Shown: positions 1 through 42,480 of the stretch, in pieces
Layout: every line of letters begins with the position of its first letter
Position numbering within the stretch: position 1 is the first letter of the stretch
DNA from: Chiloscyllium plagiosum
Taxonomy: Eukaryota
Length of the DNA: 51,056 nucleotides
Direction of reading: 5' to 3'
NCBI RefSeq assembly: GCF_004010195.1
Contig: NC_057752.1
Location: forward strand, 4,174,966-4,226,021
Program-made: the position numbers and the translations under genes
Notes under the pieces: generated by a model
Seen by the model: the letters and a program-made list of their open reading frames with translations, nothing else
Databases searched by the model: none
What the model was told of the DNA's origin: nothing

Positions 1-509
1 TGGCTCAACACTTCAACTCCCCCTCCCACTCCACCAAGGACATGCAGATCCTTGGACTCCTCCATCGCCAGACCATAGCAACACGACAGCTGGAGGAAGA
101 GCACCTCGTCTTTCGCCTAGGAACCCTCCAACCACAAGGGATGAACTCCAGTTTCTCCAGTTTCTTCATTTCCCCTCCCCCCACCTGGTCTCAGTCCCAA
201 CCCTCAAACTCAGCACCACCTTCCTAACCTGCAATCTTCTTCCTGACCTCTCCGCCCACTCCCCCCACTCCGGCCTATCACCGTCACGTTAACCTCCTTC
301 CACCTATCTCATTTCCAATGCCCCTCCCCCAAGTCCCTCCTCCCTACCTTTTATCTTAGCCTGCTTGGCACACTTTCCTCATTCCTGAAGAAGGGCTCAT
401 GCCCGAAACGTTGATTCTCCTGCTCCTTGGATGCTGCCTGACCTGCTGCACTTTTCCAGCAACACATTTTCAGCTCTGACCTCCAGCATCTGCAGTCCTC
501 ACTTTCTCC
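1..509 (+). mobile_element. Penelope-like element 3' part (end of GIY-YIG ORF plus terminal pLTR), family B
   Basis: Translates AQHFNSPSHSTKDMQILGLLH...EEEHLVFRLGTLQPQGMN, typical of a PLE C-terminus. A C-rich tract and a hammerhead-bearing terminus follow; the terminus recurs elsewhere in the window. Confidence 0.8.
381..416 (+). ncRNA. Minimal hammerhead ribozyme motif (PLE type)
   Basis: CTGAAGA-A-GGGC(TCAT)GCCC-GAAACGTT: conserved core, 4-bp stem II, palindromic ACGT stem III; stem I is weak. Confidence 0.65.
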
Positions 510-2575: not shown

Positions 2576-3434
2576 TCTGCTTTGCTGTTTTTTTCACCTA
2601 GGGGTGCTATTACTGACAACTGAGTGACATTACCACTACCAAAACTACTGTGACTTTGTTTTCTGTGATTTTTTTCCTTTCAACTACCACCAATAAAACA
2701 CCTGTGTAGCCAATTAATGGGTCTTGTTTCATGTTTTTCTTCACACACAACTGAGCGACCTTCTCACTACCAAAATTACTGTGACTGTTTTCTTTGTGCT
2801 TTTTCTTCAATTCATAACCACAACCAGTAAAATCACCTGTGTAGCAAATCAATGTTAACATGCAAAGCACATTATGAGCAATGAAAACCAAAGGTGAGGG
2901 GGAGAAGGGAGAGATGGAAGGGGCAAAATCAAAATAGAGTTGGAGGGGGAAATAAAGTACTGTATCCTCGGCAGTAAAGAGGGTCTGCTTTTTTTCTTTT
3001 TATTTCTCTATCTCGAAGTGTTGGCACACATAACTGAATGGCCTTCCCACCATCAAATCTCAGTGACTGTTTTCTTTGCGTTTTTTCTTCAACTAATAAC
3101 CACAACCAGTAAAATCACCATGTAGCCAATTCAATATTTACAAGCAAAATTCATTACGGGTAATGGAAACCAAAGATGAGGGGAAGAGAGGGAAGGGACT
3201 AAATCAAAGTGGAGTTGAAGGGGAAATAAAGCACTGGATCTCCCCCAGTGACCACCTTTCTCTAAATACAATGAGAACATTGGTGGACACCACGTGCTCC
3301 CTCTCCAATGACACTCAAGGATAAACATAAAAGGGTCTGCTTTTTTTTGACACAGAAGTGTTAGGTTTGTGCGAAGATTTGTAGCTCGGATGCTCGTTGT
3401 TGTGGTTCTGTTCGCCGAGCTGGGAATTTGTGTT

Positions 3435-3474
3435 GCAGACGTTTCGTCCCCTGGCTAGGTGACATCCTCAGTGC
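3435..3474 (-). ncRNA. Minimal hammerhead ribozyme motif
   Basis: Reverse complement reads GCA-CTGAGGA-T-GTCACCTAGCCAGGGGAC-GAAACGTC-TGC. Confidence 0.8.
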
Positions 3475-3792
3475 TTGGGAGCCTCCTTTGAAGCGATTCT
3501 GTGATCTTTTCTCCGGCATTTATAGTGGTTTGAATCTGCTGCTTCCGGTTGTCAGTTCCAGCTTTCCGCTGCAGTGGCCGAACTATTATAGGACAAGCCA
3601 AACAGAGAACAGCCAGGGAATTCCTAGAGGCATGGCACTCATCCACAGATTCAATCAGTAAATACATCGATCTGGACCCAATATACCGGCCACTGCAGCG
3701 GAAAGCTGGAACTGACAACCGGAAGCGGCAGATTCAAACCACTATAAATGCCGGAGAAAAGATCACAGAAGCGCTTCACAGGAGGCTCCCAA

Positions 3793-3832
3793 GCACTGAG
3801 GATGTCACCTGGACAGGGGACGAAACGTCTGC
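3793..3832 (+). ncRNA. Minimal hammerhead ribozyme motif
   Basis: GCA-CTGAGGA-T-GTC.CCTG(GA)CAGG.GAC-GAAACGTC-TGC: stem I GCA/TGC, intact core, GUC cleavage triplet. Confidence 0.8.
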
Positions 3833-4507
3833 AACACAAATTCCCAGCTCGGCAAACAGAACCACAACACAGAAGTATTATCACACACAAATGAATAACC
3901 TCCTAACCACCAAAATCACTGTGACTTCTTTTTTTTTTAAAAGTAATAGCAACCAGCAAGTCATCGGTGTAGTCAATTGAATATGTACATGCAAACCATC
4001 AAAAGTGAAAGAGAGTGAAGGATTGAGTCAAAATGAAATTGGAGGAGGAAATAAAGCACGGAATCTGCTCTATTTTTTGTTCTACTCAGAAGTGTTACCA
4101 CACATAACTGACCTTCCCATCGCCAAAATCAGCATTGCTTTTTTTTCTGCTTTTTTTTAAACTAATAGCCACCACCAGTAAATCACTCATGTATCCAATT
4201 GAGTATTTACAAGCAAAACCCATTATGGTTAATGCAAACTATCAATGGTGAGGAGAGGCAGGGAGAGTAGAAAGGGACTAAATCAAAATGGAGTTGGAGG
4301 TGGAGATAAAACACGGGATCTGCTTTTGTTTTGTTTATTTTATACCCAGAGGTGCTATTATGCACAACTGAGCAATTTTCCCACCACCAAAGTCATTGCG
4401 ACTTTTTTTGTTTTTTTAACTAATAACTAGTTCTAATAAAATTTACTCGTAAGGTTGCCTCTCATACTGCTATATTCCAATGAGTACAGGCCCCATTTAC
4501 TCAACCT

Positions 4508-4835
4508 AGACTTAGATTACATTACATTACATTACATTACAGTGTGGAAACAGGCCCTTCGGCCCAACAAGTCCACACCGACCCGCCGAAGCGAAACCCA
4601 CCCATACCCCTACATTTACCCCTTACCTAACACTACGGGCAATTTAGTATGGCCAATTCACCTGACCCTGCACATCTTTGGACTGTGGGAGGAAACCGGA
4701 GCACCCGGAGGAAACCCACGCAGACACGGGGAGAACGTGCAAACTCCACACAGTCAGTCGCCTGAGGCGGGAATTGAACCCGGGTCTCTGGCACTGTGAG
4801 GCAGCAGTGCTAACCACTGTGCCACCGTGCCGCCC
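4508..4835 (-). mobile_element. tRNA-derived V-SINE (HE1-like), near full length
   Basis: Minus strand has A box tggcacagtgg, B box ggttcaattcc, V-domain tgtgtggagtttgcacgttctccccgtgtctgcgtgggtttcctcc, a CR1-like 3' end and a (tgtaa)n tail. Confidence 0.9.
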
Positions 4836-4844
4836 GTACTTCTG

Positions 4845-5078
4845 AGACAGTATGGTGGTTCAGTGGTTAGACTACTACCTCACAGTACCAGGGACCCAGG
4901 TTCAATTCCAGCCTTGGGCAACTGTCTGCGTGGAGTTTGCATTCTCCCTGTGTCTGTGTGGGTTTCCTCCCACAGTCCAAAGATGTGCAGGTGGAAGGGT
5001 GAGTTACTCTTTGGAGGGTCGGTGTGGACTTGTTGGGCTGAAGGGCCTGTTTCCACTCTGTAGGGACTCTATTCTAAG
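4845..5078 (+). mobile_element. V-SINE (HE1-like) with internal deletions
   Basis: B box ggttcaattcc, V-domain and gggcctgtttccactctgt tail; lies head-to-head with the previous copy. Confidence 0.85.
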
Positions 5079-5519: not shown

Positions 5520-6235
5520 ATGGAGAAATGGTAGCATAGTGGTAAGGTTACTGATATGTAATCTAAGAAATGTAAATTTAAATGGCAGCAGGTGAATTTT
5601 AAATTAAATTGATAAAAATCTGGAATTGAAAAGTAAATGTGATAATAATTACCATAAAACTGTCATCAATTGCCATAAAAATCTATGTCGTAAAAAAAAT
5701 CATCCTTAAACCTCCCCCCCCCCCCCCCCCCCCCGCCCCCGAGGCTGGTCTGGCCTCCATATGATCCTCACAGTAATGTGATTGAATCTTAAAATAAAAC
5801 AAGTACTGTGGATACTGGAGATCTGAAACAATCAAAACAGAAATCACTGGAGAAACTTAGGAGGTCTGGCAACATCTGTGGAAAGCAAACAGAGTTGACA
5901 TTTCGAGTCCAGTGGCTATTCTTCAGAACGGTATACTTGGAAGAGATGTTGCAGTTAATTAAACATTAAAATAAAGAACTTTTTAATGCAAAGATCTGAA
6001 ACAAACAAAACAGAAATTGCTGGTGAAACCCGGCACAATCTGAAGAAGGATCGCTGGACTCGAAATGTTAACTCTACTTTCTCTCCACAGATGCAGTCAG
6101 AACTATTGAGTTTCTCCAGAAATTTCTGTTTTCTTTTAGTTGAATCTTAACTGCCTGTTGTTGGCCCAGCAAGTCACTCAATCCAATTCAAGAGCAAATG
6201 CTGGACTTGAACCCGTACCCACACCTCATGAAAAT
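5520..6235 (+). mobile_element. Old SINE with a LINE-derived tail, interrupted by a PLE-derived insert
   Basis: Head ggtagcatagtggtaagg, body aaaatctggaattgaaaag and tail gcaaatgctggact; related copies at ~14935, 35240 and 45385. Confidence 0.55.
5793..6139. mobile_element. PLE-derived composite/fold-back insert (family D) with degenerate hammerheads on both strands
   Basis: tttcgagtccagtggctattcttcag (-, ~5901-5926) and ctgaagaaggatcgctggactcgaaa (+, ~6040-6065); flanked by the repeat ttgaatcttaa. Confidence 0.6.
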
Positions 6236-7159
6236 AGTATATACCTACTTATAAATTCTACTATTACAGATTCAGGAGACAGTGACTTGTAAATGTTGCA
6301 AGGAATTTGATATCATTCAGATCTGTGAAGAATTTAAAAGTCAATGCAAAAATCTAGACTTAAGCTTTAATGATGTAGCAATATATTAGGAAAGACCATT
6401 GCAGTCCGTCGTACAGTTTTTTTTTATCACGAAAAATATTGGTTGGGCATTTAAACAGCCTTAATCCCACCTGCAAACTGTTTCAATTCCACAGATGTTT
6501 GCACAAAGCCTTTAATGTTTCTGTCCTGAGCCCTTTTTTGTAATTTGATTCAATAAAGGTAATATTTATTTTCCATTCCTTCGTTCACCTGTTTTAGGGC
6601 TGTTCTCACAAGTGTGTTAACTAAGAACCAACAGAACGTGAAGTATACTTTGGAACAAGTCTGCATTTGAAGATAAAATAAACAGAATGTGCTGGAAATA
6701 ATCAGCAGGTCAAGTAACATCTACAGAGAGAGATGGTTTAAGTCGATTCATTAGAACTGATAAAGACCTGAATCATTAACGCTGGGCTGAATTTTCCAGA
6801 CTTGCCAACGTTGCAAGTAGAGATGAAAAATTACAATCATGAATGCATAAGTAACCCACATCTGTTGCTTCCAACAAAGGTAGCAAACCAACCTGTGCTG
6901 GCTGATGATTTGTGTGAAAGCTGCATGCAACCACTGAATTCCTCATCAGGGGAGCATCACTTAAAGCTAGCCTACACTGCTTAAAGTCAGCCTGTAGCTC
7001 TTAAAAGGTGTGGTACATTCTGACTGCAGCAGGTGCTGGAACTGCTTGCAGAAGAGAGTGACCCCTACTCTGTTCATCACATCATTAGTGGCTATTTCTT
7101 CAATCTATCTTGGCCTTGAACTCTAGAATTCTTTCCCCAAGCCCATCCACCATCTCACA

Positions 7160-9320: not shown

Positions 9321-9534
9321 GACTCAGTAAGTCTGTCTGCATCTGTGGAGAGAGAACGTATTGAGTTGAATATGACTCTTCTTGGGTTCTAAGTAGGAGG
9401 AACGCAGAAGTCGTGGAGGGTTGTAGTGCTGAAAGACAGTGCAGCGATACAGAAAGTAGAGACCATGGAGAGATCTGAAAATCAGCATGTATTGCAATAT
9501 TAGGCAATGCCAGACTGACAGCCAATGTGGATCG

Positions 9535-9852: not shown

Positions 9853-10320
9853 GTTGTAAGTTTGCTCACTGAGCTGGGAGATTTGTTCTCAGATGTTTCG
9901 TCATCATACTAGGTAACATCATCAGTGAGCCTCTGCTGGTGTTCTGTCCCTCTTACTATTTATCTGTCTCGGCTTGTTGTGGTAGGGGATATCATTTCCG
10001 GTTTTGTTTCTGAGAGGTTGGCAAATGAGGTCCAAATATATATGTTTGTTAATGGAGTTCCAGTTTTAATGCCAGGCCTTTAGGAATTCCTGTGCGTGTC
10101 TTTGTTTAGCCTGTCCCAGGATGGATGTATTTTCAAAGTCGAATCAGTGTCTCTCTTCGCCTGTGTGTATGGATACCAGTGATAGTTGGTCATGTCTTTT
10201 GGTGGCTACTTGGTCATGTATCCTGGTGGCTAGCTTCCTGCCCGTTTGTCCAATGTAGTGTCTGTTGTGGTCCTTGCAGGGTATTTTATATATGATGTTC
10301 ATTCTGCTGGTTGTTGGTAC
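9853..10320 (-). mobile_element. Penelope-like element 3' fragment with GIY-YIG and degenerate hammerhead (9888-9929)
   Basis: IIYKIPCKDHNRHYIGQTGRKLATRI; reverse complement CTCA-CTGATGA-T-GTTACCTAGTATGATGAC-GAAACATC-TGAG. Confidence 0.85.
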
Positions 10321-10349
10321 AAGATCCTTTAAATTCATCACTTCACTGG

Positions 10350-10525
10350 AAGGGGCAGTTAGTATAAATATAGGCAAGCTATGTTGCCGCTTTATAGAAC
10401 TTTAGTTAGGCCACACTTGGAATATTGTGTACAGTTCTGGTCACCACACTACCAGGAGGATGTGGATGCTTTGGAAAGGGTATAGACATGGTTTACCAGG
10501 ATGTTGCCTGGTATGGGGGATTTTA
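10350..10525 (+). mobile_element. CR1 RT fragment
   Basis: Translates MLPLYRTLVRPHLEYCVQFWSPHY. Confidence 0.85.
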
Positions 10526-11012: not shown

Positions 11013-11181
11013 GGGAACAGGAGAATCGACGTTTCGGGCATAAGCCCTTCTTCAGGAATGAAGAAGGGCTTATGCCCGAAACGTCGATTCTCCTGTTCCC
11101 TGGATGCTGCCTGACCTGCTGCGCTTTTCCAGCAACACATTTTCAGCTCTGATCTCCAGCATCTGCAGACCTCACTTTCTC
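11013..11181. mobile_element. Fold-back PLE terminus (family B) with 15-bp TSD
   Basis: Perfect inverted repeat cagggaacaggagaatcgacgtttcgggcataagcccttcttca and its complement. TSD catcagcaacaatca at 10998-11012 and 11182-11196. Hammerhead intact on - (11024-11059); the + copy lacks the first core C. Confidence 0.9.
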
Positions 11182-14854: not shown

Positions 14855-15471
14855 CTGAAAATTCTGAATTAGTTTTTATGGGTCAGCTCCAAAGAGGGAC
14901 AGTGCACATTTTCAGCTGCTTTCTTTCACCAGTGGAGATGATGGTGTAGTGGTAATATCACTCGGCTAGTAATCCAGAAGCCCAGGCTAAGGATCAGGGG
15001 ACATGGGCTGAAATACCATGGCAACTGGTGAAATTTAAATTATTAAGTCAGAACTATAAAGGTAGTCTTGATTGCTGTGATACCTGATTTATTCATCCTT
15101 CTAGGATGGGCAATACATGCTGGCTTTGCCAAGAAGACCTATATTCATCAGGTTGAAGAAGAGACACTGAAAGAAGAAACATTAGCTCTGCTTTCCTCTC
15201 TCAGATGCTGCCAGCAATTTCTGTTTTTGTTTCGGACTTTATTTTTTTAGGTATACCTGATATGGTTCCTGGCATAACTTCTAGCACTGTTCATTCAGTC
15301 AGCATTGATCCTTTCAAGCGATACTGTTGATGTGTAAGAGACCAGTTTTATTTTTGGACTAAGGACTGAAAATGAGAGAAGTGGACACCATTTTTAAAAT
15401 GAGTGTGCATGGAGTTATTTGCAGCTTGAAAAATCAAATGAAACTAACTGATGCATATAAGAAGACATTAC

Positions 15472-15910: not shown

Positions 15911-16079
15911 ATGTGGAGATGCCGGTGTTGGACTGGGGTGGACAAAGTTAAAAATCACACACCACCAGGTTATAGTCCAACAGGTTGATTTGGAAGTACT
16001 GATGAAGGAGCAGCACTCTAAAAGCTAGTACTTCCAAATAAACCTGTTGGACCATAACCTGGTGTTGTGTGATTTTTAA
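15911..16079. mobile_element. Fold-back PLE terminus (family C) with 13-bp TSD and decayed hammerhead
   Basis: Inverted arms gttaaaaatcacac..ttggaagtac / gtacttccaa..gtgtgatttttaac; ctgatgaaggagcagcactctaaaagcta at 15999; TSD cataata(c/t)ttatg at 15898-15910 and 16080-16092. Confidence 0.85.
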
Positions 16080-17069
16080 CATAATATTTATGCCTTGTTC
16101 AGTTCTCTTTGCGTGTCTATGTGTGGGCATTTAAAAGGGGTAAAGTTTAAGTTAGAAAAATTACAAATCCTTTCTTTTATCATTCTTGTTAGAGTTTAAT
16201 ATTAAACTAAATAGAGCTATTTTACGGTTTTGAAGGAACTTCCTACAGTTCATTTTGGTCTTGGGTAGCAGTCAGACAGAAAAATTGGATATTTTCGTAG
16301 TTCAGTTACATTTTGATAACTGTGTCGATCAAAGGGGCAGAGGGGCTTGATATCAATGCACCCTCCCAAGTATGTCATGACAAAGAGGAAGGAAAACCTT
16401 GAAGGTAAAGAAAGAAGGGAAAAGACAAAGACAGTAAGAGCATCTTTCTCCCCCATTTACTAATAAGATTAGTCTGATGTGGAGCGTAATTCCTCCGCCT
16501 ATGCTCAGAATCAAGATGCTGATCATGTTTGCACATTTGATAGCAGAATTGTAGAAATTTTGAGGAGATAAGGTTATATGTAAATGAGACATTTTTCTAT
16601 GTGAGGAGTCTTACACCTAATAAGATACGTTGTTTATTGTTCAAGATTACACTGTAGACAAACATCTTGTGATTATTGTAACAGTTTAAAGGTTTTGTTA
16701 TTAAAACTTAAAGCTCACCACATTTTGCAAGGATCTGCTTTACTTTGTCGGTATTTAGATGTGCTACATTTGAATGATAGTGTAATTAATCCAGATTTTA
16801 ATGGGTCATTTGTCGATGAATCTTTAGTGAGAAGAGGAAAAAGAAAGGCTTGCATTAGACTCAACGGGCCAAATGGCCTCTTCTATAACCTGAGGAATCT
16901 ACACGAGGATCTGCCATAGCACATGTTTCTTCAATGCAAATTGGCTTTAACACGACTGAAGAATTTACACTGTTATTTGTAGAACATGAACTTTCCTTCC
17001 CTGTATTTGTTATAGCGTGATTTCAGCCCATTAGTTTAAATGGCACCACTATTGCGCTATTTTCTTATT

Positions 17070-17975
17070 CAAGGTTTGTGTAAAGTCTTTGCCAAGAACA
17101 GATATCCCCACAACCTCATCCACAGATGCCAAGCAGGCAAACAAAGCTTCGAGGACATGCCACGACCTAACACACTAGCCACACTATCTTATATAAAAAA
17201 TGTCTCAGAACTAACAGCCAGACTTTTCTGACCACTTGGATTCATGACAGCCGATAAACCAAAAGCCATGCTCAGACAACAACTTCCCAGAACAAAAGAC
17301 TCTATACCCTTCATAGAGAAAGTGAGGGCTGCAGATGCTGGAGATCAGAGCTGAAAATGTGTTGCTGGAAAAGCGCAGCAGGTCAGGCAGCATCCAAGGG
17401 ACAGGAGAATCAACGCCTGAAGAAGGGCTTATTCCCGAAACGTCGATTCTCCTGTTCCTTTGATGCTGCCTGACCTGCTGCGCTTTTCCAGCAACACATT
17501 TTCAGCTCTATACCCTTCATATGCAAGACATATGTAATTTACAAGATTCCATGCAAAGACTACACAAAACACTATATAGGTCAAACAGGCAGACAACTAG
17601 CAATCTGCATCGATGAACACTAACTAGCAACTAAACGCCATGACCAGCTGTCCCTGGTAGCCATATACACAGATGACAAGGACCACAATAATAGGACAAG
17701 CTAAACAGATTACAGCCAGAGAATTTCCAGAGGCATGGCACTCATCCATGGACTCCATCAATAAACACATTGACCTAGACCCAGTATACCGACCACTGCA
17801 AAGAACAACCGGAACCAGCAACCAGAAGCAGCAGGAATGAAACAAAATAAATTCCAGAAGACACGGTACAGCAGCGCTTCACAGGAGGCTCCAAAGCACT
17901 GAGGATATCATGTAGAAAGGGTACGAATGCGTCTGTGAATCAACTTCCCAGCTCGGTGAACATATCCACAACTAC
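17070..17975 (+). mobile_element. Penelope-like element 3' fragment (RT thumb/linker, GIY-YIG, terminus), family A
   Basis: TLSYIKNVSELTARL; VIYKIPCKDYTKHYIGQTGRQLA; decayed hammerhead gcactgaggatatc..gtacgaatgcgtc at ~17895. Confidence 0.85.
17316..17505. mobile_element. Fold-back PLE terminus (family B) nested in a family A PLE, 16-bp TSD
   Basis: TSD ctctatacccttcata at 17300-17315 and 17506-17521; inverted arms; ctgaagaagggcttattcccgaaacgtc on +. Confidence 0.9.
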
Positions 17976-18432: not shown

Positions 18433-19612
18433 AATGGTTCTAGCCATATTGTGGCTCAAATACAGTTTAGTACTTTACAAAATCTCAATATTTAGGGAAA
18501 TGCAGAGAGAGATTTAGTTTTTTTCTTAATAGAGCAGAGCTTTAAAAAAATCAAAGTAGGTTGGCATGGGGACTTGTTCAGGGTTGAGAAGCCTTCGTCT
18601 CAAGAGCTAATCTGTGACACATTACATCATTACCTCTTGGCAGTTCTAAAATTTACTTGTAAGAACAAGTATGGGTGAGCTGGGATAATGGGTGGGACTG
18701 TAGGCTGGTGATGATCCTAAAGAAATAATGCTGATCTTACAGTATATTTTTTTTTAAAATCAGTATTATGTACAGAAACAGCAATGGATAGGCTGGGGAA
18801 ACGTGGTAGCCAGTACCAGGGAATTGGAAGTTATTTCCATTTTGATCATCACAGCAAAATTCACTAAGTCTGATCTCCTTTATAGGAAGTGGCAATAGAA
18901 GGGATTGTGAGTTCAGTTAAACCATATTAATGATCTACAATGTGCAACCTATTAAGCTGTTGGAAGCAGAGATGGCGAATAATATCAAAAGGAAATTGGA
19001 TGGGTATTTGAGGGAAATTAACTTGCAGGGTTAGGGAGATAAAGCTGGAGAATAGGATTTATTTGAATGCTCTGTAGAAAACTAATATGGGGTTCAGGTA
19101 CATAGTTTCTTGAAAGTTGCATCACAGGTAGCCAGGGTGGTAGAGAAAGCATTTGGCATGCTTGCCTCCTTAGTTCATTGAATATAGGAGTTGGGATGTC
19201 CTGTTAAGGTCATTCAGGACATTGTTGAGGCCACTTTTAGAGTAGAGTAGTGTGTACAGTTCTGGTCACCCTGCTACAGAAAGGATATTATTAAACTGGA
19301 GAGGGTGCAGAAAAGATTTACAAGGATTATACTGGTACTGGAGGGTTTGAGTTATAATGAGAGGCTGGATAGGCTGGGACTCTTTTCACTGGATCACAGA
19401 AGGTTGAGGGGTGACCTTATAGAGGTTTATAAAATTATGAGAAGCATAAATAAAGTGAATAGCAAAGGTCTTTTCTCTAGGCTAGGGGAGTTCAAAGTTA
19501 GAGGGCATAATTTTAAGATGAGAGGAGAAAGATTTAAAAAGGACTGAGGGGCAACCTTTTCACACAGAAGGTATTCGTTGTGGTTCTGTTCGCTGAGCTG
19601 GAGGTTTTTGTT

Positions 19613-19652
19613 GCAAACGTTTCGTCCCCTGGCTAGGCGACATCATCAGTGC
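19613..19652 (-). ncRNA. Minimal hammerhead ribozyme motif
   Basis: Exact reverse complement of 19797-19836. Confidence 0.8.
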
Positions 19653-19796
19653 TTGGGAGCCTCCTGCGAAGCGCTTCTTTGATGTTTCCTCCGGTGTTTA
19701 TAGTGGTCTGTCCCTGCCGCTTCCGGTTGTACAACCGACAGACCACTATAAACACCGGAAGAAACATCAAAGAAGCGCTTCGCAGGAGGCTCCCAA

Positions 19797-19836
19797 GCAC
19801 TGATGATGTCGCCTAGCCAGGGGACGAAACGTTTGC
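19797..19836 (+). ncRNA. Minimal hammerhead ribozyme motif
   Basis: GCA-CTGATGA-T-GTC.CCT(AGCC)AGG.GAC-GAAACGTT-TGC. Confidence 0.8.
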
Positions 19837-20115
19837 AACAAAAACTTCCAACTCGGCGAACAGAACCACAACAACGAGCACCCGAGCTACAAATCTTCGC
19901 ACAAACTTTGAACAGAAGGTATTCGCTTGTGGAATGAACTGCCAGAGGAAATGGTAGATGCAGGTACTGTCACAACATTCAAAAGACATTTGGGCAGGTG
20001 CATGGATAGGAAAGGTTTAGTGGGATATGGGCCAAATAGGACTGGTTTAGTTTGGGAAATTTGATCAGCGTGGATGAGTTGGACCAAAGGGTCTATTTCT
20101 GTGCTGTATGACTCT

Positions 20116-23645: not shown

Positions 23646-26070
23646 TTAGAACATAGAACATAGAACAGTACAGCACAGAACAGGCCCTTCGGCCCACGAT
23701 GTTGTGCCGAACATTTGTCCTAGCTTAAGCACCTATCTATGTACCTATCCAATTGCCGNNNNNNNNNNNNNNNNNNNNNNNNNNNNNNNNNNNNNNNNNN
23801 NNNNNNNNNNNNNNNNNNNNNNNNNNNNNNNNNNNNNNNNNNNNNNNNNNNNNNNNNNNNNNNNNNNNNNNNNNNNNNNNNNNNNNNNNNNNNNNNNNNN
23901 NNNNNNNNNNNNNNNNNNNNNNNNNNNNNNNNNNNNNNNNNNNNNNNNNNNNNNNNNNNNNNNNNNNNNNNNNNNNNNNNNNNNNNNNNNNNNNNNNNNN
24001 NNNNNNNNNNNNNNNNNNNNNNNNNNNNNNNNNNNNNNNNNNNNNNNNNNNNNNNNNNNNNNNNNNNNNNNNNNNNNNNNNNNNNNNNNNNNNNNNNNNN
24101 NNNNNNNNNNNNNNNNNNNNNNNNNNNNNNNNNNNNNNNNNNNNNNNNNNNNNNNNNNNNNNNNNNNNNNNNNNNNNNNNNNNNNNNNNNNNNNNNNNNN
24201 NNNNNNNNNNNNNNNNNNNNNNNNNNNNNNNNNNNNNNNNNNNNNNNNNNNNNNNNNNNNNNNNNNNNNNNNNNNNNNNNNNNNNNNNNNNNNNNNCAGG
24301 GTTGTACTCTATCTGCCACTCCTCAGCCCAGCTCTGCATCATATCTAAGTCCCTCTGCAGCCGACAACAGCCCTCCTCACTGTCCACAACTCCACCTCTC
24401 TTCGTATCATCTGCAAATTTACTGACCCACCCTTCGACTCCCTCATCTAAGTCATTAATAAAAATTACAAACAGCAGAGGACCCAGAACTGATCCCTGCG
24501 GAACTCCACTTGTAACTGGGTTCTAGGCTGAATATTTACCATCTACCACCACTCTCTGCCTTCGACTGGTTAGCCAGTTTTCTATCCAATTGGCCAAATT
24601 TCCCTCTATCCCATGCCTCCTGACTTTCCGCATGAGCCTGCCATGGGAACCTTATCAAATGCCTTACTAAAAATCCATGTACACTACATCCACTGCTCTA
24701 CCCTCATCCACATGCTTGGTCACCTCCTCAAAGAATTCAATAAGACTTGTAAGGCAAGACCTACCCTTCACAAATCTGTGCTGGCTGTCCCTAATCAAGC
24801 AGTGTCTTTCCAGATACTCATAAATCCTTTCCCTCAGTCCCCTTTCCTACCACCGAAGTAAGACTAACTGGCCTGTAATTCCCGGGGTTATGCCTATTCC
24901 CTTTTTTGAACAGGGGCACAACATTCGCCACTCTCCAGTCCCCTGGTACCACCCCCGTTGACAGTGAAGACGAAAAGATCATTGCCAACGGCTCTGCCAT
25001 TTCCTCTCTTGCTTCCCACATAATCCTAGGATATATCCTGTCAGGCCCGGGGGACTTGTCTATTCTCAAATTTTTCAAAACGCCCAACACATCTTCCTTC
25101 CTAACAAGTATCTCCTCTAGCTTACCAGTCCGTTTCATACTCTCCTCTTCAACAATACGGTCCCTCTCATTTGTAAATACTGAAGAAAAGTACTCATTCA
25201 AGACCTCTCCTATCTCTTCCGACTCAATACACAGTCTCCCACTACTGTCCTTGATTGGACCTACCCTCGTTCTCGTCATTCTCATGTTTCTCACATACGC
25301 ATAAAAGGCCTTGGGGTTATCCTTGATCCTACCCGCCAAAGATTTTTCATGCCCTCTCTTAGCTCTCCTAATCCCTTTCTTCAGCTCCCTCCTGGCTATC
25401 CTGTATCCCTCCAACGCTCTGCATGAACCTTGTTTCCTCAACCTTATATAAGCCTCCTTCTTCCTCTTTACTAGACATTCAACCTCCCTCGTCAACCAAG
25501 GTTCCCTCACACGACCATCTCTTTCCTGCCTGACTGGTACATACATATCAAGGCCACGTCGTATCTGTTCCTTGAAAAAGTTCCACATTTCCACGACATC
25601 CTTCCCTGACAGCCTATGCTCCCAACTTATGCTCCTCAGATCCTGTCTTGCAGCATCGTATTTACCCTTCCCCCAATTGTAAAACCTACCCTGTTGCACG
25701 ATCTATCTCTCTCCATAACCAAGGTGAAAGTCACAGAATTGTGGTCACCATCACCAAAATGCTCACCCACTAACAAGCCCATCACTTGTTCCGGTTTGTT
25801 ACCAAGTACCAAATCCAATATGGCCTCCCCTCTGGTTGGACAATCTACATACCGAGTTAAAAAAGCTTCCTGGACACACTGCACAAACACCGCCCGTCCA
25901 ATCTACTTGATCTAAAGAGCTTCCGATCAATATTTGGGAAGTTGAAATCGCCCATGACTACTACCCTGTGGCTTCTGCACCTTTCCAAAATCTGTTTCCC
26001 AATCTGTTTCTCCACATCTCTGCTGCTATTGGGGGGCCTATAGTAAACACCCAAGGTGACTGCTCCTTTC
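23646..26070 (-). mobile_element. CR1 LINE ORF2 (APE endonuclease plus RT), frameshifted, spanning the assembly gap
   Basis: GVYYRPPN, VMGDFNFPNID, PTRGEAILDLVL, DHNSV, KSPGPD, GNYRPVSLTS; tail (tagaaca)n at ~23647-23667. Confidence 0.95.
23759..24296. other. Assembly gap (538 N)
   Basis: Run of n. Confidence 1.
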
Positions 26071-27427: not shown

Positions 27428-27570
27428 AGGGTCGAGAGTGTGGTGCTGAAAAAGCACAGCAGGTCAGGCAGCATCCGAGGAGCAGGAGAATCGATGTTTC
27501 GGGCAAAAGTCCTTCATCGGTCCTTCCTGATAAAGGGCTTATGCCTGAAACGTTGATTCTCCTGCTCCTG
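27428..27570. mobile_element. Fold-back PLE terminus (family B) with decayed hammerheads
   Basis: aggagcaggagaatcgatgtttcgggcaaaagtccttcatc ... ctgataaagggcttatgcctgaaacgttgattctcctgctcct; no clear TSD. Confidence 0.8.
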
Positions 27571-28259: not shown

Positions 28260-29050
28260 TGTCGAAGTTCTGGCAGATGGGTTGGTGCAGAAAAGGGCTA
28301 TCCTCTTCCCTAGTGAGTGCCTGAGGATGACCGCCAAGTCAGTGCCTTCTCCAGGGTGCAAAGGAATGGCAGTGCCACAAAAAGATCAATGACCTTCTCT
28401 GACAAGGTAGGTGCCACATGCTTCTCACTGCCATGTCACGCTCTATCTCTGCCATGTACACGTCTCCCACCACTCTCACTATCACCCACAACACCTTCCC
28501 TCACCCACTCACTCCCCTCTCAGCCTTCCACACCACAAACCTTGCACACCCTCTGTGCTGCCTCAACTCTTCGCTACCTCTGGATCAGTGGTGCTGGAAG
28601 AGCACAGCAATTCAGGCAGCATCCAACGAGCAGCAAAATCGATGTTTCGGGCAAAAGCCCATCATCAGGAATAAAGGCAGAGAGCCTGAAGCGTGGAGAG
28701 ATAAGCTAGAGGAGGGTGGGGGTGGGGAGAAAGTAGCATAGAGTACAATAAGTGAGTGGGGGAGGAGATGAAGGTGATAGGTCAGGGAGGAGGGTGGAGT
28801 GGATAGGTGGAAAAGGAGCTAGGCAGGTCGGACAAGTCCGGACAGGTCAAGGGGAGTCATTGTTTTACCTCTTCGCTACCTCTCACCACCTTTCCCCTAC
28901 GTCCACCAGTACTGATGGTTATGCTACTCACTATAATCTTTGCTATTTCCACCCGCCGCATATTCTCACAGCAGGACAGAGAGAGGCTGGATGAGTGGAG
29001 GTGTGCCCCGACATTAAGTTCCATATACTCTACAAGGAGAGAATTTGGGC
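28260..29050 (+). pseudogene. Second Myb/SANT-like (Harbinger-type) gene relic
   Basis: VEVLADGLVQKRAILFPSE..QVSAFSRVQRN..QCHKKINDLL, then a gtaggt donor at 28407; C-rich intron; decayed RER..GG.PDIK-like segment at ~28975-29020. Confidence 0.55.
28581..28868 (-). mobile_element. PLE family B terminus with a short inverted tip, 14-bp TSD
   Basis: TSD ctcttcgctacctc at 28567-28580 and 28869-28882; reverse complement ctgatgatgggcttttgcccgaaacatc; agtcattgttttac is a plus-oriented terminus. Confidence 0.85.
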
Positions 29051-30646: not shown

Positions 30647-30748
30647 TGAAAATGTGTTGCTGGAACAGTGCAGCAGGTCAGGCAGCATCCAGGGAACAGG
30701 AGAATCGACGTTTCGGGCATAAGCCTTTCTTCAGGAATGAGCTTCAGG
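30647..30748 (-). mobile_element. PLE family B terminus fragment, 13-bp TSD
   Basis: TSD aaagcttcagggc at 30634-30646 and 30749-30761; reverse complement attc-ctgaaga-aaggcttatgccc-gaaacgtc-gatt. Confidence 0.85.
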
Positions 30749-33576: not shown

Positions 33577-34479
33577 GGTGGGAGTGGGATTATCAATGAG
33601 GCAAGTTCTGATATTAACAAAGCATTTAATAAGTGTTAATCGCCATTAACTAGTTTCTCACCATTGCCTAATATCTCACAATGCCCCCTTTATAATTTCA
33701 ACTCGTCTTGCATAAAAACTGTTCCAATCATGCTTCTTTCATAGAAAACTGCCCTATGCCTAAAGTTAAACTGGAGATAGATGAGAAACTATAAATTAAA
33801 GAGAACAGCTTTTCTCAGCTTTCACTAAGAGGCAAGCCGTCCTGTGAATCTGAAATAACCTGCCACGTCAGCAGGAGTATGTGGGAACCTTTAACACTAT
33901 TCTGTAATATCCTGCAAGGTATGGATGAGTCAGTAGCAACCCTTAACTCTATGCTGTGTTAGGCTGGTAGTTCTGTTTAGTTTGAACAAAATACCTTTTA
34001 ATTTAATGGTATAGCTGAATTTCCATCTTCTTTATCAAAAGTCTTAAAAGATTATACAAGACTGCATAAACCACCAATATCCATTTTCCCACCTCAGGCC
34101 AAATGGTCATGAAACCTAACCAATTGATACCAAGAATAACTCAACTCAATTGATTAATATAATAGCAAACTACTGCAGGCGCTGGAAATCTGAAATTAAA
34201 ACAAAAATGCTATAAATACTCAGCAGATCAAGTTGCATCTGTGGAGAAAGAAACAAAGGTAGCATTTCAGGTTGAGACAATCATTCACCAGAACTATTCA
34301 AAACAATAGAAATTTGAGAGTTTTTAAACCAGTAGAAGTGGAGATCGTAGGAAAAATAAAGAGCAAGTGATAAAGTGGAGGGCAGGAGAGATTCATTAAC
34401 AAAAGATTTTCGATGCAAATGCCAACGGGAATGGTAATGGGCAGAGTGAAGAAACAACGGTTGTCAGATAATTCACTTT

Positions 34480-37890: not shown

Positions 37891-38769
37891 TGTTATGACA
37901 CAGGGTAAACCCCTCTGCTAATTTAAACTAGCCACATAGAAAAGATTCACCTCATATTGTAATCTGTTAAAATTCAAGAGGCAAAGAACGATCCCAGAGG
38001 GCACTATTAACAACTTTAAAGAATAAAGGTGAAAGAATATTCTTTAACAACTAAAAATGAACAACTTTATTCTTTAAGTCCAGAGAATATTAAAACCAAC
38101 AACTCCTTTCTCCTAAACCTATCTTTTACCCCTCACTCTACAATGCTAGTCCGATAAAACAATCCCGATTAAGATTTTTTTAAAAATCACGCTTCAAAAC
38201 CAGCCAGCTTTGCCAATTCTCCATTGTAGATTTTCCTCTGTCGATTGTCTCCAGGTCGGACTCGATGTTCTGCTGCATAAACTTATAGGCAGGTACCTTT
38301 CAGAGAGCTGTTCTGCTGGCAGTCTGTACTTGTTGGTGGCTTTTGCCCAAAACGCCGATTTTCCTGTTCCTCAGATGCTGACTGACCTGCTGTGCTTTTC
38401 CAGCACCACTCTAATCTAGCCTCTAATCTCCAGCATCTGCAGTCCTCACTTTTGCCTTGTTGGTGGCTTGGCAGTTCTCCCCTTAACTGTTCAAAATGTC
38501 CAGTTTTATACCCTTAAACAGTGGATCGTTTCATTGGTTTAAAATTATCAAAATACTAAATTCAAATTTGATTGGATCTTGGGGCTTAATTTAAACTGAT
38601 TGGCCGAATTTGAATTTGTTTTTGTATCATGGCAACTCAACTGCATTATTAGTTTCGCGGTCAAATGTTACACTTTAACTTCTTTCAGTACGCTCTGTGC
38701 CTCTCGAAGTCTGTGCCAGCTTTTCAACTCTTTTAAAAAGGTACCGTACACCTCTACACCTTCATAACA
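37891..38769. mobile_element. Solo LTR
   Basis: Termini TGTTATGA...TCATAACA (8-bp perfect inverted repeat, TG..CA); 5-bp TSD ttgac/ctgac; the LINE sequence resumes across it. Confidence 0.85.
38343..38455 (+). mobile_element. PLE family B terminus fragment in the LTR, 14-bp TSD
   Basis: TSD cttgttggtggctt at 38329-38342 and 38456-38469. Confidence 0.85.
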
Positions 38770-40200: not shown

Positions 40201-42480
40201 GACCCATCTGGCTGTTACCAGGTCTATCCACGCTGTGCTGTCTTCTGGGGTGCTGAACACATCATGCAACCTGCTGACTTTAACCACTTCCATCAGGAAT
40301 CTAGACATGGCGTCCGGTTTGCTGTCAGCCCCTCTGGATCATTCGTCCCTATCGATGATGTAGTTGACGTCTCTGGCTACAATGACCAGTCCGGACGTCG
40401 CCAGCAGCAATGGGAACTGTTGCAGGACGATCAGCAGCTTACTTTTTACCATTGGGGTGTACACATTAATTAGTCTCGGGGAGTGTTTCTGTACGTAACA
40501 TTTGCTAGTCCACACACCATCTCCTTAACTGCAGATGGTGAAGTTGCCTGCTCACAGAATACCCAGGCCAGAGGAATTGCAATAGTTTCCCGCCCTGCCC
40601 CTGACCAAATCGAAGGTCAGTGAGCCCATTAGCATGACAATAAGAATGACCTCCTGTAGCTGCTGAGGTGTGGGATGCTGCACTCCTGCAAAAACAGGAG
40701 GCCCGCTTTGATGTTAGCCAGGTAGCCAACATGGAAACATATTGTATTGTAGATTTAACGCTACTTACATTAATAATGGCAAATTTAAAACCCATTTTAA
40801 AAGTTTATAGAATTACCTGTAGACCCAACATCCATTCATCTGCAGACTTGTCACTGAGGTCTCCCTGCATCCCCATGGTGTGGGCAAATTGTTGGACATT
40901 CACTGCATTGAGGTAGCTGCCTTGTTCCTGCCTGGGAGATGTCCCTGAACCAGCGCCATTGGGGCAAGTACAAAGCCAGGGAGGTTCAGTTCTGAGTCCA
41001 ACTAAGGGACTATTGTGCTCTTGATTTGGAGTAACACTGCTCCTGGTTGCCTAGAGCTGTGATGTGGTAGGTCCCCGTTGGTTCCCAATGGCTGCAGGTT
41101 AGGTTTTACTAGGCCCCTTGGGATGTTCAGTGTGTCTGGGTTGGGGAGGGCTGCTCCTTTCCTTCTCCACTTTGTTGCTGTGCCTCTTTTTCTGTTGGTG
41201 GTCATTCCTCTGCACATCTTCATCAGCAAAAGAGCTACTAGTGTGTTCATCATTCAGCTGCCTCCTTCCATTTTGCTATTGGCCTGAAGCATTTTCCTTT
41301 TCCAGCGGTTTCTCACCTGTATCCACCTCCCACCTCCTTATTTCCTCTTGCTCCATTGACTCCATCTGTTCAGGTGAAGTTGGGATCGGTTGTTGTGCCT
41401 CCGCACTGCCTATGTTTTCCTTCTCTCCGGCCTGTCCTTCTGTCTGGGTACCCCTCTTTTCAGTTTTCTTGCTGGAGGGTGGTACCTTACAGTCCTTTGA
41501 ATGTCCACAGCTCGCATTGCCACTTCTGGCCATCTGAGCATATGTAGCGCCCCTCCATCTTGGTAAGCCTTGTCCAAGTGGCCTGCTTGCCCAAAGGTTG
41601 CAGCTCTTGGAGTCTTTGCAGTCCTTAGTCAGGTGGCCCTCCTGTTTGCAGCTCCTGCAGAGGGTCAGTTTGCAATCTGCTACCATGTGCCCTGACATCC
41701 TGCAGGTTCGGCACACTCTCGGCTGCCCCACATGTCAGGTGGCCTTGGCTCCTTCCAATTGCGAAGCTGGAGGGCGGGTTAAGGATGTTCCCACTGGCAT
41801 CCACCTTCAGGGTCACCTTGACCTGCCGCTTGCACCACATTGATGCTACCCGCTTCAAGTTATACGTACCTTCCCAGAAAAGTCAGGACATCTGCTGCCG
41901 GGACATGAGGGTTATACAAACTGGCTTCTCGGTGCAGGGAGAATGAACAATGGTGCCGCAGATAGGACGGAGAGGGTACCCTCACATCCTTTCTCCTCAA
42001 ATGTCTTCAGCAGATGCTCACATGGCTTCATACTCCTGAATGTCACGTCAAAGTAGCCCTTGCTGAGGAATTCCTGCATAAAGAAAACATCTGCTGCTTG
42101 GAAACCACAGCAATCCAGAAAAACTCTTCATGAAGGAGGTCTGGTTGATCTTTCCTCCACCTTCTTCACCCTGACTATAATGCAGACCCTGGATTCTGGA
42201 TTAGTGGTGCTGGAAGAGCACAGCAGTTCAGGCAGCATCCAAGGCGCAGAGAAATCGATGTTTCGCTGCTCCTTGGATGCTGCCTGAACTGCTGTGCCCT
42301 TCCAGCACCACTAATCCAGAATCTGGTTTCCAGCATCTGCAGTCATTGTTTTTACCTCTATAATGCAGACCCGCCTGGGGCGCAGGCTCTAGCTGAGGCC
42401 ATAGTTCTGTTTGGCGGGTCACTGAATTGGCATTACACTAAAGCCAGTATAAAGATCCACCAATTCCAATTCAACTCAAC
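40201..42480 (-). mobile_element. L1/Tx1-type non-LTR retrotransposon 5' part (ORF1 zinc knuckles and start of ORF2 APE), decayed
   Basis: CRTCRMSGHMVADC and CRSCKQEGHLTKDC (CCHC); ORF2 start MGFKFAIINVSSVKS at 40795; decayed GDFN-like motif (RDVNYIID) near 40360. Confidence 0.85.
42190..42357. mobile_element. Fold-back PLE terminus (family B) in Tx1 ORF1, 15-bp TSD
   Basis: TSD ctataatgcagaccc at 42175-42189 and 42358-42372; ~55-bp inverted arms; hammerhead truncated. Confidence 0.9.

Follow-up and report, generated by a model that had tools for sequence, protein, structure and literature searches.

The fold-back units found in a 51,056-nt stretch of Chiloscyllium plagiosum DNA (the window) are insertions of the ends of Penelope-like elements (PLEs), and each of them may represent a single event of twin priming, in which one RNA would be reverse transcribed from two fixed starts about 35 nt apart, a reading to which we give a probability of roughly one half. 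The observations behind it are anatomical: two inverted arms within one target site duplication (TSD), a tail of 33-41 nt, junctions that vary between loci and a longer 5' reach of the arm devoid of the tail. Every count given below comes from this one window of one genome.

Seven of these units had been named in a first-pass annotation as two inverted copies of a PLE terminus, and self-comparison of the window recovers the inverted arms at all seven loci, 94-100% alike in the six that have a TSD. A single TSD of 13-16 nt surrounds both arms in those six (14 nt at 3364, 15 at 11013, 13 at 15911, 16 at 17316, 16 at 19578 and 15 at 42190), and two extra units are likewise enclosed, against a chance level of 4 in 291 random window pairs for duplications of at least 13 nt. 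In the focal unit (Table 1) the inverted arms span 190 nt, are 95% complementary and leave a spacer of 92 nt between them, and the DNA fold has a z-score of -33.5. Its plus-strand arm (3582-3866) runs from an endonuclease C-terminus through a hammerhead to a stop at the TSD, with the 3' ends of the unit facing outwards, and the position of that C-terminus bears out the head-to-head layout proposed earlier. The tail, restricted to one arm, measures 33-41 nt in seven out of eight two-arm units, drawn from three families, and 79 nt in 11013. Described earlier as one arm with the complete terminus and another stopping short, the units agree for the most part with that description: six of the seven named ones have the complete terminus in one arm (27428 has it in neither), and the other arm ends 33-39 nt early in five of the six named units with a tail, 11013 being the exception. 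Compared with 19578, the focal unit has a tail arm shorter by about 5 nt. Around the focal insertion, between 2058 and 4425, there is a local repeat of about 200-250 nt in at least five copies that are 65-80% alike.

Table 1. Position and structure of the PLE units in the window (5' reach in nt relative to the hammerhead core, tail-less arm/tail arm).
Feature	Positions	Strand	5' reach	Remarks
Long family B copy	1..509	+		continues past the window edge; codes for the C-terminus of a second PLE GIY-YIG protein, distant from that of family A
Left TSD copy, focal unit	3350..3363	.		14 nt, 1 mismatch against the right copy
Tail-bearing arm, focal unit, family A (presumably Poseidon-like)	3364..3580	-	-109	3364-3400 is the tail, missing in the other arm
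Minimal hammerhead core, left arm	3438..3471	-
Tail-less arm, focal unit	3582..3866	+	-214	about 105 nt more 5' reach; the spacer belongs to this arm
C-terminus of PLE GIY-YIG endonuclease	3582..3731	+		within the tail-less arm of the focal unit
Minimal hammerhead core, right arm	3796..3829	+
Right TSD copy, focal unit	3867..3880	.		first 3 nt are the element's continuation
Family D, three pieces	5793..6139	.		minus, partial minus and plus; 11-nt TSD; outer arms 75/94 identical
Family B	11013..11181	.	-6/+2	short arm (-, 11013-11061) and tail arm (+, 11059-11181)
Family C	15911..16079	.	+1/+28	tail arm (-) and tail-less arm (+, degenerate hammerhead); 13-nt TSD, 1 mismatch
Extra family A unit	17068..17974	.	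about -640/+95	stub unit: inverted tail stub (-) and tail-less arm of about 700 nt (+); 11-nt TSD
Family B	17316..17505	.	-1/+25	tail arm (-, 17316-17415) and tail-less arm (+, 17416-17505)
Family A	19578..19911	.	-81/-61	tail-less arm (-, to 19730) and tail arm (+, from 19731)
Older family B pair	27428..27569 (about)	.		35/41 identical; both arms without tail
Extra family B unit	28582..28868	.	about -190/+112	stub unit: long tail-less arm (-) and 15-16-nt tail stub (+); 15-nt TSD
Single tail-less family B arm	30647..30748 (start about)	-		13-nt TSD
Single tail-bearing family B arm	38343..38455 (start about)	+		14-nt TSD; ordinary 5'-truncated insertion
Family B	42190..42357	.	+20/+33	tail-less arm (-, to 42265) and tail arm (+); 15-nt TSD

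The assignment to PLEs, also made in the first-pass annotation, is backed by protein links for two of the families, whose arms or long relatives encode ends of GIY-YIG endonucleases. Positions 3582-3731 encode 50 residues that share 92% identity with the C-terminus of P0001, a shark protein matching RVT_1 (E 3e-6), and P0011, a relative of P0001, has both RVT_1 and GIY-YIG above the Pfam cut-offs; longer family A copies (17070-17974 and 9863-10374) align to P0001 as well and include the YIG motif. Family B appears to be tied to PLEs through its long copy at 1-509, where positions 3-152 encode a stretch 80% identical to P0012, a protein whose GIY-YIG match (E 0.005) falls below the cut-off and which is 21% identical to P0001. 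The sources of the closest proteins are named as bamboo, epaulette and whale sharks, and a Pfam search with the short endonuclease pieces of the window recognised nothing. Judging from motifs, we take family A to be presumably Poseidon-like and family B presumably Neptune-like. The expectation of at least three unrelated families is borne out, the seven named units being distributed among A (3364, 19578), B (11013, 17316, 27428, 42190) and C (15911), to which a fourth, D, is added at 5793-6139 and 11400; C and D are putative PLE families, assigned by hammerhead and architecture and without a protein link.

Minimal hammerhead cores are clearly in excess, since a strict scan of the window found eight against 0.03 expected from 30 shuffles, and a looser one also found cores of families C and D. 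Their presence on both strands of each unit, as previously claimed, applies to two of the seven named units (3364 and 19578), which keep an intact core in both arms, and fails for the other five: a single intact core is present in 11013 and in 17316, both cores of 27428 and the one of 15911 are degenerate, and 42190 has no complete core. Within the hammerhead at 3796-3829, a short frame starts from an ATG at the start of stem II, as likewise described for a lizard PLE in the available text of PMC11167929. The monomer RNA folds of five hammerhead pieces were not better than those of shuffled sequences (z from -0.8 to +0.7), which is to be expected of motifs that depend on a dimer or on a protein. 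An Rfam search returned no hammerhead match, and its microRNA-like hairpin matches all lie below threshold, a reason for annotators to be cautious, since PLE hairpins resemble both microRNA precursors and MITEs. In these units the hammerheads are passengers of the terminal repeat, with no sign here of a role in integration. Two other candidates were rejected: non-LTR retrozymes, given that there are dispersed inverted pairs or single ends instead of head-to-tail tandem hammerhead repeats, and, outside the window, PLE ends at 119 metagenome and 26 viral-contig loci that match the family B motif, whose best alignments do not exceed 34 nt (145/145).

The junctions between the arms are as variable as the first-pass annotation had stated. 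Their position differs at every locus, no two being alike, and the homology at the centre of the six overlapping units amounts to 0, 0, 0, 1, 2 and 3 nt (automatic scoring worked for four of seven units, three of the six overlapping ones cleanly, and the others were read by eye). At the outer side, the tail-less end shares a microhomology of 1-4 nt with the TSD in seven of eight ends (chance 0.0004-0.001; seven two-arm units plus 30647 were scored, 17068 being unscorable), in agreement with the microhomology reported earlier, which is of 3 nt at 3867 and of 1 or 3 nt at 19578, depending on the register. The arms of family A are identical at 174/180 and 131/135 positions within units versus 85-87% between units, those of 42190 at 56/58 and those of 15911 at 47/50, and the two arms of each unit thus appear to belong to a common subfamily; in young family B units, an arm is as close to other copies as to its partner (for 17316, 62/65 within the unit and 96/100 to the right arm of 11013). 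Mismatches between arms, 0-6 per unit and partly of CpG type, are compatible with errors of the reverse transcriptase or with later mutation. Taken together, the one TSD, the arms of the same subfamily and the variable junctions support an origin in a single event. Could the units rather be fixed MITE- or SINE-like palindromes copied whole, a case that the first-pass annotation had itself listed as a refutation, or two separate insertions lying side by side? Head-to-head neighbours do arise by chance among the SINEs of the window, but all the junctions of the PLE units differ, their arms encode PLE protein ends and one TSD spans both arms, all of which makes this explanation hardly credible. 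The SINEs in question (4538-5072) are two tRNA-like copies placed head-to-head, with different internal deletions, presumably of the V-SINE/HE1 type and likely separate insertions.

A point absent from the first-pass annotation is that the two arms are not interchangeable. In each of the eight two-arm units that could be scored, it is the arm without the tail that extends further in the 5' direction and contains the spacer (reach was measured relative to the hammerhead core, with alignments adjusted by eye for five units). The p value of this asymmetry is 0.008 as a coin-flip, 0.03 with pooled lengths and the head start kept, and 0.125 when lengths are swapped within units, and 19578 becomes a tie if the 7 nt preceding its deletion are counted. 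Two ambiguous units stand outside these eight: 27428 agrees with the asymmetry, in that the arm whose 3' end lies more upstream has the longer 5' reach, whereas 5793 is contrary to it, its tail arm extending about 2 nt more in the 5' direction. In the literature searched (early PLE reviews being beyond reach), no statement was found on this asymmetry or on twin priming in PLEs, and a search combining 'Penelope', twin priming and inverted structures found no paper on the PLE mechanism.

How could one event leave two arms that differ in this way? Under the twin-priming reading, the endonuclease would make a staggered cut of 13-16 nt, after which one target end would pair by 1-4 nt at the upstream start and lead, giving rise to the tail-less arm, while the other would prime at the end of the tail and trail. 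The trailing synthesis would either stall within the tail (stub units) or displace the cDNA of the leader without ever passing it (overlapping units), and the 3' ends of both cDNAs would then be joined with little or no homology, each strand being filled in on the other. We infer every step after the staggered cut, and strand displacement by the PLE reverse transcriptase is an assumption. Twin priming on one RNA would place the upstream start ahead and the tail start behind, which is the order observed. Moreover, the sequence of the stub is absent from the partner arm, and hence a second priming event is needed; the stub units, with their tail stub of 15-18 nt, are laid out like L1 twin-priming products in which a gap is left. 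In vitro, according to the available text of PMC11167929, the protein of an anole PLE, a predicted dimer, cleaves and extends both target strands, its two reverse-transcription starts bound the tail, and hammerhead cleavage is dispensable; the RNA sites at which initiation occurs there lack homology to the cleaved DNA, and start sites are alike on both strands. The agreement on priming from both ends and on tail-bounding starts fits twin priming in the shark and, by analogy, would support it, as it does the earlier claim that both target ends prime. Counted against the twin-priming explanation are the low number of units (n = 8), the weaker p when the head start is kept, the near tie of 19578, the partnerless tail arm at 38338, the family B partners that are no closer than other copies, and, from the in vitro work, initiation free of homology and the same start sites on both strands. 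The more general proposal that programmed twin priming is the default route of PLEs, a dimer making two cDNAs on one RNA with a trailing enzyme that never passes the leader, by which one rule would yield the inverted pseudo-LTR, the one-sided tail and the stubs across unrelated families, is advanced tentatively, at somewhat short of even odds.

The asymmetry weighs differently on the other explanations. A single priming at the tail end, followed by a fold-back second strand that ends early and pairs with the overhang of the TSD, would account for the short arm and the TSD microhomology, but it needs the spacer to lie in the tail arm, while in the overlapping units the spacer is found in the tail-less one (6/6, one a near tie), and it cannot generate stub units; the loop being on the side opposite to the prediction argues against a simple fold-back of the tail-primed cDNA, and we consider it very improbable. 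The model in the first-pass annotation, in its plain form, would have each subunit of a dimer use an independent RNA of its own, the two RNAs being primed by different target ends and their cDNAs end-joined. It would agree with the extension of both strands and the predicted dimer of PMC11167929 and with the existence of single arms of each type (30640, 38338), and independence survives the within-unit swap null (p = 0.125); however, it leaves unexplained why exactly one arm per unit bears the tail and never extends further 5' (8/8), and why the arms share a subfamily while several subfamilies coexist, and is regarded as unlikely. A slightly poorer prospect is an extrachromosomal hairpin or palindromic DNA (self-primed, for example, on an antisense template), which the endonuclease would trim at the tail boundary of one side before it is integrated. 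An intermediate of this type was put forward in PMC3846280, the tail was attributed to endonuclease-mediated resolution of an intermediate in PMC8557442 (in the portions of both that are accessible), and the centre of 19578 is a short perfect palindrome; against it, the later in vitro work places target-primed starts at both tail boundaries (PMC11167929, in its available text), and stub units would require loops of 300-700 nt closing within the tail.

The order of the arms would also be obtained if twin priming were followed by snap-back, with a tail cDNA consisting of the tail only and an internal cDNA that copies itself by folding back and then jumps to the tail cDNA, in such a way that the overlapping part of the tail arm would be a DNA copy of the leader. 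This variant, possible if rather unlikely, predicts that the loop is always owned by the tail-less arm, as in 8/8, and would be consistent with the small 5' offsets (8-27 nt in five of six overlapping units), with 5' ends that rank together in these six (Spearman 1.0, 1/720 permutations) and with partners that are either a stub or a near-full overlap, without intermediates; in addition, palindromes at inverted junctions were interpreted as self-priming in the part of PMC3846280 available. Nevertheless, three of the six overlapping centres (3364, 17316, 19578) have no pairing from which to initiate, the rank agreement falls to 0.02 when the stubs are included, the six units were picked post hoc, and four have their ends close to the hammerhead in any case. 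With a centre homology of just 0-3 nt, a snap-back dependent on pairing is unnecessary, and displacement is preferred because half of the centres offer no pairing, even though sequence alone does not separate the two.

In all, 16 recognisable ends or units of families A-D were counted in the window, a region present in runs from three organisms, older and weaker family D-like ends being left out: eight overlapping fold-backs (the seven named plus the three-piece unit at 5793, which may be the result of two events), two units with a stub partner (17068, 28582), two TSD-bounded single arms (30647 without tail, 38343 with it), three older single arms without TSD and one copy off the window edge. 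Nine of the eleven TSD-bounded units have an inverted partner arm, and the claim that this is the main outcome of integration stands within the window, which is the scope of the count. The copies at 9863, 11400 and 45846 showed neither a TSD nor an inverted partner, as did four older family D-like ends, single and with the inverted partner gone (6665-6731, 9322-9357, 15154-15249, 34166-34292), and no TSD was found for 27428.

Some of these units have particularities of their own. In 11013, whose TSD is of 15 nt, the short arm ends 79 nt before the terminus and the centre overlap is of 3 nt (by eye); this end and that at 27569, both of family B, nearly coincide, at +45 and +43 relative to the hammerhead core and some 80 nt short of the terminus, and are possibly a third start site. 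The stub of 17068 comprises up to 18 nt, the last 10 of which also match the coding sequence of the long arm, and the tail-less arm, carrying the YIG endonuclease, is split by the 17316 unit; that is, between 17057 and 17985, an older family A unit has a family B fold-back nested in the arm that codes for its endonuclease. The nested unit has a blunt centre and a 16-nt TSD with 4 nt of microhomology, and 42190 has a 1-nt centre overlap. The tail arm of 19578 has a 12-nt deletion after its first 7 nt, and its TSD is of 14-16 nt, with one mismatch near the end; the palindrome at its centre (19724-19737), followed by the deletion, fits either two cDNAs that both stop at one RNA end or an insert templated by snap-back. 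The single tail-less arm has a 7-nt copy of nearby sequence at its 5' junction (30742-30748). An assembly gap of 538 N occupies 23759-24296.

A shark genome dense in young stumps of several families offers a cheap test of the models of PLE integration. If the tail-less arm owned the spacer genome-wide, both the single-primer fold-back and the independent-RNA models would fall, and the existing in vitro system could then tell displacement from snap-back.

The units of the window are EN+ PLE insertions, as indicated by the RT/GIY-YIG protein link, the hammerhead, the one-sided tail and the inverted truncated copy with a TSD, and their fold-back architecture is already published and ordinary for the class. 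In the accessible parts of the respective papers, Craig et al. 2021 (PMC8557442) describe as typical of PLEs a one-sided tail of 30-40 bp and, adjoining the element, an inverted 5'-truncated copy, Arkhipova et al. 2013 (PMC3846280) inverted pLTRs within a TSD, a 31-bp tail and palindromic head-to-head junctions, with a proposal of self-priming, and Schostak et al. 2008 (PMC2377424) inverted repeats of variable size, all of which have their counterpart here: 5'-truncated copies joined head-to-head to an inverted truncated copy, the one-end tail, the TSD and the variable repeats. The shark units differ in being mostly stumps of 140-500 nt without an ORF, and those descriptions, as far as available, are silent on which arm bears the tail or reaches further 5'; the route to the inverted repeats and the one-sided tail is termed undefined in the available text of PMC8557442 and PMC11167929. 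The minimal hammerheads of metazoan PLEs have the same core and the same very short self-complementary stem III region, and those of Schistosoma occur as pairs on opposite strands, 100-700 bp apart (Cervera and De la Pena 2014, PMC4209133), but the accessible part offers no integration mechanism, and here most arms have lost the core. Poseidon from Anolis carolinensis (Frangieh et al. 2024, PMC11167929) shares the starts that bound the tail in an AC-rich region downstream of the hammerhead and the cutting and extension of both target strands; inverted products are untreated in its available text, and its homology-free initiation contrasts with the 1-4 nt at the tail-less ends of the shark. The available parts of PMC8969392, 10.64898/2026.07.22.740005 and 10.1101/2024.12.14.628481 have no effect on the reading. 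With the twin priming of L1 (10.1101/2024.08.27.596794, as far as accessible), the shark units have in common the head-to-head arms in one TSD, the microhomology of the internal primer and a gap or overlap at the inversion, and differ in the lack of poly(A), in an internal start fixed at 33-41 nt from the end (7/8), in overlaps of 44-183 nt versus a median of 22 bp, and in that inversion is the majority outcome in the window. The first-pass annotation had set its mechanism apart from that of L1, where arms were said not to overlap, a contrast that does not hold: 17% of the L1 5'-inverted insertions have an internal duplication (66% a deletion), so overlap is not unique to PLEs, though much longer here, and the two stub units do not overlap, like L1. 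That mechanism, though plausible, does not stand apart from twin priming, and what the units of the window add to a known architecture is the asymmetry of the arms, a small and testable addition and a modest mechanistic lead.
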